A stretch of DNA of 47,714 nucleotides from a virus (IMGVR_UViG_2541047681_000007); one strand, 5' to 3'; shown: positions 31,645 through 32,697, counted from the stretch's first letter. Numbers and translations: made by a program. Notes: generated by a model not told the origin, from the sequence alone.

Positions 31645-32697
31645 TTATTTCCCCACCAGCTCGTTTATCTCTTTCACTGTCTGGTTAAACCGCTCTGACT
31701 CAAGCTCAACACCTAAGGCCCGACGCCCCAGCGCCATTGCTGCTTTTATTGTGGAACCGGATCCCATAAAAAAATCAGCAACCAGATCACCAGGTCGACT
31801 ACTGGCATTGATTATTTGCCTGAGCATATCCGCCGGTTTCTCACACGGATGTTTACCTGGGTAGAACTGAACGGGTTTATGCATCCAGACATCGGTATAA
31901 GGCACGGAGACTGATACGGAGAAATAGCGCCGGAGAGATTTAAACTCATCCAGCAATTCAGAATATTTACGATTCAGTGAATCATAAGATGCCACCAGTT
32001 GGTGGTGTGGTTGTTCCAGTTGTTGTTCCTGAAACTTCTCTGCCGCTATACGGGAAAACAGTGCCTGTAACTTCCGATAGTCAGCCTCATTCGGCAACTG
32101 CCACTGACTGGCACCAAACCAGTGGGAAACCATATTTTTCTTACCTGTGGCTTCGGCAATTTGTTTTGCCGTTATACCCAGTTCGGCACGAGCATCCCTG
32201 AAATACGATATCAGCGGTGCCATTATGTACTGTTTGAGTTCCCTTTCTTTTGCCGCATAGCTGTCACTTTTGCCGCGATATGGCCCCTGGTAATGTTCAG
32301 CAAACAGAACGCGCTCTGTGGCAGGAAAATATGCGCGCAGACTTTCTTTATTACACCCATTCCAACGTCCGGACGGCTTCGCCCAGATGATATGGTTAAG
32401 CACGTTGAAACGTTCACGCATCATGATCTCAATATCAGATGCCAGGCGATGCCCACAGAACAGGTAAAGGCTTCCGGCAGGTTTTAACACCCGCCAGAAC
32501 TGGGCCAGACAGTGGTCCAGCCACTTAAGGTAATCTTAGTCCCCTTTCCACTGATTGTCCCAGCCGTTGGTTTTCACCTTGAAGTACGGCGGATCGGTAA
32601 CAATCAGGTCAATGGAATCATCAGGCAGGGATTGAATAAAATGCAGGCAATCAGCGTTGAACAAATCAATGCTGTTTATTTTTACAGCATTTTTCAT
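31645..32697 (-). pseudogene. DNA N6-adenine/N4-cytosine methyltransferase (beta-class) interrupted by in-frame TAA
   Basis: N-terminal 53 codons (MKNAVKINSIDLFNADCLHFIQSLPDDSIDLIVTDPPYFKVKTNGWDNQWKGD) carry the DPPY motif and end at TAA (32536..32538); same frame continues ...DYLKWLDHCLAQFWRVLKPAGSLYLF... to C-terminal FxGxG motif (DFFMGSGST). Confidence 0.7.

Follow-up and report, generated by a model that had tools for sequence, protein, structure and literature searches.

A lambdoid prophage methyltransferase gene of the M.EcoGII type probably inactivated by an inherited ochre mutation

INTRODUCTION

M.EcoGI and M.EcoGII, two non-specific N6-adenine methyltransferases, come from prophages of Escherichia coli O104:H4 C227-11 (Murray et al. 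2018, PMC5778455). M.EcoGII is a beta-class enzyme of 349 amino acids, and phage 1720a-02 has been named as the carrier of an enzyme very like it (PMC5778455). Enzymes of this type are silent in lysogens, toxic when expressed, and thought to be switched on at prophage induction (PMC5778455). The roles of the DPPY and FxGxG motifs are essential in the beta class: motif IV (DPPY) binds the target adenine and must adjoin motif I (FxGxG) for catalysis (PMC7544214).

Here, we analyze a gene of this kind in a 47,714-nucleotide stretch of viral DNA (IMGVR_UViG_2541047681_000007), which we call the window. A first-pass annotation of the window had reported an in-frame TAA within the gene, and had left two explanations side by side: a nonsense mutation inactivating the methyltransferase, or low-level readthrough or restart. 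With a probability of roughly 0.9, the locus is best explained as a methyltransferase gene from the late region of a lambdoid prophage in which codon 54 has become an ochre stop (GAA>TAA, E54*), a plain nonsense mutation that is inherited and involves no recoding signal.

RESULTS

An ochre stop separates the two catalytic motifs of a methyltransferase frame

The features of the locus, in window coordinates, are as follows.

31645..32697, minus strand: the whole disrupted methyltransferase gene, M.EcoGII family, 350 codons plus the terminal stop (translation, Pfam)
32536..32538, minus strand: ochre TAA at codon 54, the substituted base being 32538, G>T on the coding strand (alignment with H10407)
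32539..32697, minus strand: 53-codon N-terminal ORF with motif IV DPPY (translation; peptide WP_248699130.1)
31645..32535, minus strand: C-terminal 296 codons, presumably untranslated or at most weakly restarted (no start backed by a Shine-Dalgarno [SD] sequence)
Within 31645..32535, minus strand: motifs V-VIII, target-recognition region and motif I FMGSG (31756-31770)
32538..32862, minus strand: divergent 5' block, comprising the upstream region and codons 1-54, about 7% from the common allele
31622..31638, minus strand: hairpin and T-run resembling an intrinsic terminator, lying between the methyltransferase stop and the holin gene

When the minus strand is read and translated over 31645-32697, ATG 32697 opens 53 sense codons whose product is MKNAVKINSIDLFNADCLHFIQSLPDDSIDLIVTDPPYFKVKTNGWDNQWKGD, and codon 54 of the frame is TAA (32538-32536). 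The DPPY motif occupies residues 35-38 (32595-32584, minus strand) and therefore lies within the 53-codon ORF. Beyond the stop, 296 sense codons follow in the same frame, among them those for FMGSG (residues 310-314; 31770-31756, minus strand), and the frame closes with TAA at 31647-31645. Thus, no single uninterrupted coding sequence joins DPPY to FMGSG, since the TAA at codon 54 separates them. The first-pass annotation had the start, the 53 codons, DPPY and the TAA right, and it had correctly placed an FxGxG motif at the far end of the downstream frame. Its figure of 280 further codons was too low, because the ORF had been counted from GTG 32490 (281 amino acids), the first start that a mechanical ORF search meets past the stop.

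The repaired protein belongs to the M.EcoGII family by sequence

For family searches, codon 54 was read as sense (Glu), which gives a repaired protein of 350 amino acids. This protein scored 146.5 bits on Pfam PF01555 (N6_N4_Mtase; curated cut-off 26.7; E 1.5e-42), from residue 29 to residue 341 and over profile positions 1-220 of 221, and it also matched phrog_67, “DNA methyltransferase”. The motif order is that of the beta class, with DPPY N-terminal, the recognition region central and FxGxG C-terminal (order according to PMC5778455 and PMC7544214). Both ends of the protein align with the solved beta-class enzymes 8urk, M.RsrI, M.MboIIA, DpnA and CcrM; homology to M.RsrI (1eg2/1nw5), 8urk (“Methyltransferase”), M.MboIIA (1g60) and CcrM (6pbd) ranges from E 1e-24 to 1e-14. 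These are distant relatives, and the alignment is limited to the N- and C-terminal halves of the catalytic domain, while the central 160 or so residues are specific to the M.EcoGII group and fall outside it. Against these structures, residue 54 sits just past the DPPY loop, at the start of the next conserved segment.

Closer relatives were found with tblastn. Identity to the repaired protein is 98.3% for the methylases of phages cdtI, Ayreon and mEp460, 96.6% for SfV orf48, and about 80% for those of phiP27, many Stx2 phages and phage 1720a-02 (79.7% for the last). The methylases of cdtI, Ayreon, mEp460 and SfV (96.6-98.3% protein identity), like WP_000799656.1 of enterotoxigenic E. coli (ETEC) H10407, are encoded by a continuous 350-codon ORF, unlike the window gene, which also diverges from these intact genes by about 7% in its first 160 nt and in the 165 nt upstream.

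Aligned over its full length with M.EcoGII, the repaired protein shows 276/349 identities (79%), 89% positives and two gaps; the M.EcoGII query was machine-read from the supplement of PMC11551740 (the SUPREM paper) and may contain small errors. The two are alike in length (349-350 amino acids), in being prophage encoded, in motif order and in having an acidic residue at position 54 (Asp in M.EcoGII, Glu in the close homologs of the window gene), but only the window gene is interrupted there. By sequence, the gene is a member of the M.EcoGII family of non-specific N6-adenine methyltransferases, the non-specific activity being that of M.EcoGII itself and the window gene's subgroup, about 80% identical, being placed by similarity. 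With its interruption, it is best filed as a putative beta-class N6_N4 methyltransferase pseudogene and not as a functional member.

The stop differs by one base from a widespread sense allele

For the comparison with intact homologs that the first-pass annotation had proposed, window positions 32440-32700 (261 nt) were aligned with ETEC H10407, whose copy of the gene is intact, and with the three E. coli records closest to the window. All three closest records carry TAA, as the window does. The 61 bases centered on the stop match H10407 at every position but one: codon 54 is GAA there and TAA here, so that only its first base differs. The stop thus amounts to one G>T transversion (E54*).

The TAA allele is rare. 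A 61-mer centered on it matched 995 E. coli records, of which only 3 were exact and 976 had 95-99% identity, with a one-base difference among the matches listed; overall, just 3 of the 5,426 complete E. coli genomes have the allele. An exact 33-mer with TAA had no match in IMG/VR viral contigs and none in JGI metagenome contigs, and its GAA counterpart was found in at least 120 IMG/VR viral contigs. The complete gene is present in 89 of the GAA viral contigs listed, and 88 of these 89 copies have an intact ORF (350 amino acids in 87). GAA at codon 54 in these copies follows from the construction of the search pattern, but their open frames argue that the family is normally kept open and that the stop is a rare, derived state.

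The stop is inherited within one prophage lineage

The three RefSeq records with TAA are NZ_CP148393.1 (Korea, 44.6-kb circular), NZ_CP195362.1 (New Zealand) and NZ_CP058874.1 (Hong Kong). Together with the window, they share a 115-aa Q gene and an AT-rich ORF on the opposite strand, between Q and the methyltransferase gene, and none of the remaining complete E. coli genomes (5,426 in all) has this module. A look-up of the AT-rich ORF's product in a large assembly collection added 10 contigs, all from independent sequencing runs, and in every one codon 54 is TAA and the only premature stop. Consequently, all 14 examined copies of the lineage carry TAA (the window, 3 RefSeq records and 10 contigs), which indicates that the stop is inherited and is not a read error. 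The nine full-length copies have no stop or frameshift besides the TAA and differ by at most 0.7%. Since the copies are this similar, their open downstream frame carries little weight.

The products of the allele have also been deposited. The exact 53-aa peptide is NCBI WP_248699130.1, “hypothetical protein”, on 5 contigs, and a variant with Arg at residue 9 was deposited from Shigella flexneri. The 291-aa C-terminal remnant, which PGAP starts at CTG 32520, is on 20 contigs, and PGAP calls it “DNA-methyltransferase” (WP_071779649.1, WP_072056746.1) and not a pseudogene. A second methyltransferase copy is present in two carrier genomes.

Other parts of the carrier prophages have diverged to 94-98% identity, yet the TAA allele has been kept, and one carrier is a circular 44.6-kb molecule with an uninterrupted set of structural genes. 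The loss is evidently tolerated.

Two side observations concern this lineage. The circular molecule, pZ1323HEC0010-3 (NZ_CP148393.1, 44.6 kb), is colinear with the 24AR0142 element (NZ_CP195362.1, 1206001-1256000), which lies beside ssrA (tmRNA), and includes a ParA-family module past the integrase; this “plasmid” is probably the excised circular form of a prophage. The AT-rich ORF (32899-33816, plus strand; flanks approximately 32862-33867) encodes 305 amino acids, or 264 as PGAP calls it in relatives. Its GC content is 26-31% against about 50% in the flanks, its strand is opposite to that of Q and the late genes, and the C-terminal half of its product is hydrophobic and helix-rich. Among the 5,426 complete E. 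coli genomes, just 3 have the ORF, always together with the TAA allele. Its product has no match in Pfam, PHROG or PADLOC, so that a functional tie between the stop and this ORF was set aside, there being no function to propose, and AlphaFold2, run on the single sequence, gave a model too poor to use (mean pLDDT 40, pTM 0.22). The ORF may be a moron or a defense-type cargo gene.

The stop lies at the edge of a mosaic 5' block

Homology to the H10407-type allele starts at 32862. From there to 32538, the window has 23 mismatches in 325 nt (7%), against 5 in the 938 nt from 32537 to 31600 (0.5%); the divergent stretch ends with the mismatch at the TAA base itself. This step from 7% to 0.5% at the stop codon looks like a recombination or mosaic junction inside the methyltransferase gene, and the stop would accordingly sit at the edge of a recombinant 5' block brought in with Q and the AT-rich ORF. 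Identity of 99% or more across the divergent block is confined to the three RefSeq records with TAA. Three further records have 95-99% identity and 1053 have 90-95%, the best of the remaining records being 93.7% among the matches listed.

T4A, V10I, I13F and P43T are present in all four full-length lineage copies compared, and G146S and H157Y in three of the four; with the exception of V10I (3/88), these changes are absent from 88 intact copies. Relative to the consensus, the ratio of non-synonymous to synonymous changes is 7:6 in the lineage and about 2:7 in intact copies, with the extra changes mostly in the divergent 5' block. The 7:6 ratio fits relaxed constraint but is confounded by the mosaic origin, as the 5' block may descend from a different parental allele. 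Relaxed selection was therefore rejected as decisive proof of a pseudogene, given the clustering of the extra non-synonymous changes in that block.

The gene occupies the usual late-region position

The methyltransferase gene is downstream of the Q antiterminator gene (33868-34230; Pfam Phage_antitermQ). Directly past it is the hairpin at 31638-31622, under whose matching sequence the phage Ayreon record annotates a terminator, and then come holin, lysozyme and spanin genes, annotated in relatives' records as essD, rrrD and Rz. This placement between Q and the lysis cassette is the usual one for the methyltransferase family in lambdoid prophages. ETEC H10407 and the lineage relatives have the gene in the same slot, downstream of Q and immediately upstream of essD/rrrD-type lysis genes.

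On the Q side, a promoter-like TTGATG-17-TATCAT (33899-33871, minus strand) overlaps the last codons of Q. About 15 nt past the Q stop (within 33815-33899, minus strand), AACAAGCCTA...TAGGCTTGTT makes a perfect hairpin, with an A-run on one side and a T-run on the other; lying between Q and the AT-rich ORF, which converge on it, the hairpin has the look of a bidirectional terminator. The promoter-like site and the hairpin together resemble a pR'-tR' arrangement, and with such a layout late transcription would run antisense through the AT-rich ORF before reaching the methyltransferase gene.

The window's prophage has other lesions

An IS21-family element of 2,410 bp (25805-28214), carrying istA (25898-27397) and istB (27394-28149), splits the large terminase (gpA) gene. 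Its terminal inverted repeats start TATGAGACG and TATTAGACG, and on either side lies a 6-bp target duplication, GTTCAG (25799-25804 and 28215-28220). What remains of the large terminase is an ATPase part (28198-29094) and a nuclease part (24576-25886), so the window's prophage should be defective in packaging. Relatives do not have this insertion; 24AR0142 has an IS66 element in its portal gene.

Both pZ1323HEC0010-3 and 24AR0142 also have, in the nin region, a Dam-like “phage N-6-adenine-methyltransferase” (NZ_CP148393.1, 6245-6898). This gene had no blastn or tblastn match in the window, which differs there (36803-37100), and the window's prophage has evidently lost it or never had it. The prophage would then encode no working adenine methyltransferase of either the M.EcoGII or the Dam-like kind, and with both missing, any particles would be without phage-encoded m6A protection.

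At the other end, positions 1-3900 of the window, past the tail-fiber assembly gene, are 99.9% identical to annotated E. coli regions, from whose annotation the following genes are taken.

1-1209, plus strand: DNA cytosine methyltransferase
1244-2719, minus strand: type II restriction endonuclease
3084-3857, plus strand: LEM-3-like GIY-YIG protein

This segment looks like restriction-modification cargo beside the prophage end.

Selection, readthrough, restart and error as alternatives

We considered whether the loss, or a residual product, could have been selected, tied either to the Q and AT-rich-ORF module or to the toxicity of the enzyme, as opposed to neutral decay, and we regard this as quite unlikely. 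If it were so, the module, linked to the stop in 14 of 14 copies, might make expression of a toxic non-specific m6A methyltransferase harmful, so that its loss was favored. Alternatively, the TAA might act as an attenuator or allow a restart, leaving trace enzyme or a fragment without DPPY that hinders the dimeric methyltransferases of co-resident prophages.

A related proposal, that the full-length enzyme is made in trace amounts by readthrough of the TAA or through a host ochre suppressor tRNA, the stop attenuating a toxic non-specific methyltransferase, appears quite improbable. It would accord with the deleterious effect of M.EcoGII under constitutive expression (PMC5778455), with a downstream frame open in 9/9 full-length copies, and with retention of the allele in every sampled member of the lineage. 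These copies, differing by no more than 0.7%, are too alike for the open frame to show constraint, and the stop is restricted to one rare lineage. Of the three stop codons, UAA leaks least in E. coli, and a G after it makes for efficient termination. The window has TAA-G, and ARAGORN found no tRNA gene, and hence no suppressor tRNA in cis, in its 47.7 kb, so that neither a suppressor nor a leaky context is present within the window. Furthermore, the 61-mer differs from intact H10407 solely at the stop base, and a site otherwise identical to the sense allele argues that no recoding signal has evolved around the stop. A stop used for readthrough should be conserved across diverged homologs, and here it is found in 3 of 995 records with the 61-mer, against GAA in H10407 and Asp in M.EcoGII. 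Finally, protection of a phage genome requires abundant late enzyme and not traces.

Translation might instead restart past the stop, at CTG 32520, GTG 32490 or ATG 32424/32421, and give a DPPY-less fragment of 258-291 amino acids that acts on its own or forms part of an active split enzyme. In-frame starts do lie 18, 48 and 114-117 nt from the first base of the stop, and gene callers annotate such fragments (291 amino acids by PGAP, 258 in Logan and NCBI contig calls). However, the conflict between these starts is typical of an arbitrary choice by a gene caller, and the callers would disagree because no real start signal is present. Anti-SD pairing was scored for each in-frame ATG, GTG, TTG, CTG and ATT among the first 140 codons; no score was better than −3.7 kcal/mol, and the candidate starts reached only −1.3 (CTG 32520), −1.5 (GTG 32490) and −1.5/−2.7 kcal/mol (ATG 32424/32421). 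The search for a restart SD suggested by the first-pass annotation therefore came back empty, and reinitiation at these codons would be at most weak and SD-independent. The fragment would also be without motif IV, the binder of the target adenine (PMC7544214). Among the homologs sampled, no natural split occurs at the position of codon 54; frameshifts, deletions and contig-end partials account for the cluster's other short forms. Variants in which the fragment reassembles with the 53-aa peptide, or in which a dead partner poisons the dimeric methyltransferases of co-resident prophages, draw on the proposal that beta-class methyltransferases act as dimers (PMC7544214) and on the second gene copy in two carrier genomes. 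We judge restart highly improbable, and its variants, taken jointly, equally so. The readthrough or restart explanation of the first-pass annotation is thus unsupported, with no tRNA gene in the window, no SD-backed start, a product lacking DPPY and a stop confined to one lineage.

Least probable of all, and very unlikely, is a sequencing or assembly error hiding a true GAA in the isolate: a single-base difference is the commonest type of consensus error, but the identical TAA appears in complete genomes from Korea, New Zealand and Hong Kong and in 10 contigs from independent runs, always linked to the same lineage-specific flanking variants and outside any homopolymer run.

DISCUSSION

Altogether, these results support the first of the two explanations in the first-pass annotation, a nonsense mutation that inactivates the methyltransferase: the change is GAA>TAA, and the product retains only motif IV. 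The locus has the hallmarks of a nonsense pseudogene, being one base away from a sense orthologue, with a product of 53 of 350 amino acids and an allele that recurs in 13 other assemblies. As judged from the frame, ribosomes starting at ATG 32697 would stop after 53 residues, and the resulting peptide would carry motif IV but neither the rest of the Rossmann fold, nor the target-recognition region, nor the AdoMet-binding motif I. No active enzyme would then be made, and a dead gene is the most likely state of the locus. We infer that the mutation arose once, in or next to the recombinant 5' block that arrived with the Q gene and the AT-rich ORF, and would then have been passed to every sampled member of the prophage lineage.

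Judging by its position, the intact gene would be expressed on the Q-dependent late transcript, and its enzyme would guard progeny DNA from restriction by methylating it, a protection that loss of the enzyme would remove. Polarity of the stop on the downstream lysis genes would be unlikely, because Q-modified RNA polymerase resists termination and would read through terminators. From what is generally known of lambdoid phages, the loss would be tolerated because the function is an accessory, anti-restriction one. It may even be mildly favored, M.EcoGII being toxic when expressed (PMC5778455).

The locus described here is of an ordinary kind: a gene of a known enzyme family, turned into a pseudogene by a nonsense mutation, within a lambdoid prophage that is mosaic and decaying. 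It shares with ordinary point-nonsense prophage pseudogenes the single-base lesion, the loss of motifs, inheritance in one lineage and neighboring lesions of decay. The only oddity by comparison is that RefSeq lists the remnant as a normal 291-aa protein (WP_071779649.1). The finding matters little beyond annotation, where the 291-aa “DNA-methyltransferase” and the 53-aa “hypothetical protein” of RefSeq would be better flagged as one pseudogene.

There is also a modest point for M.EcoGII-type enzymes in phage biology. Other altered alleles of the methyltransferase gene exist, among them a frameshift after residue 60 that leaves 69 amino acids, on 29 and 17 contigs, an in-frame internal deletion that leaves 127 amino acids, and a form of 353 amino acids, on 24 contigs, in which DLPY replaces DPPY. 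Disrupted methyltransferase alleles circulate in both E. coli and Salmonella, and inactivation of the gene appears to be recurrent. That several broken alleles are independent supports the view of the methyltransferase as a dispensable, and perhaps costly, accessory gene.
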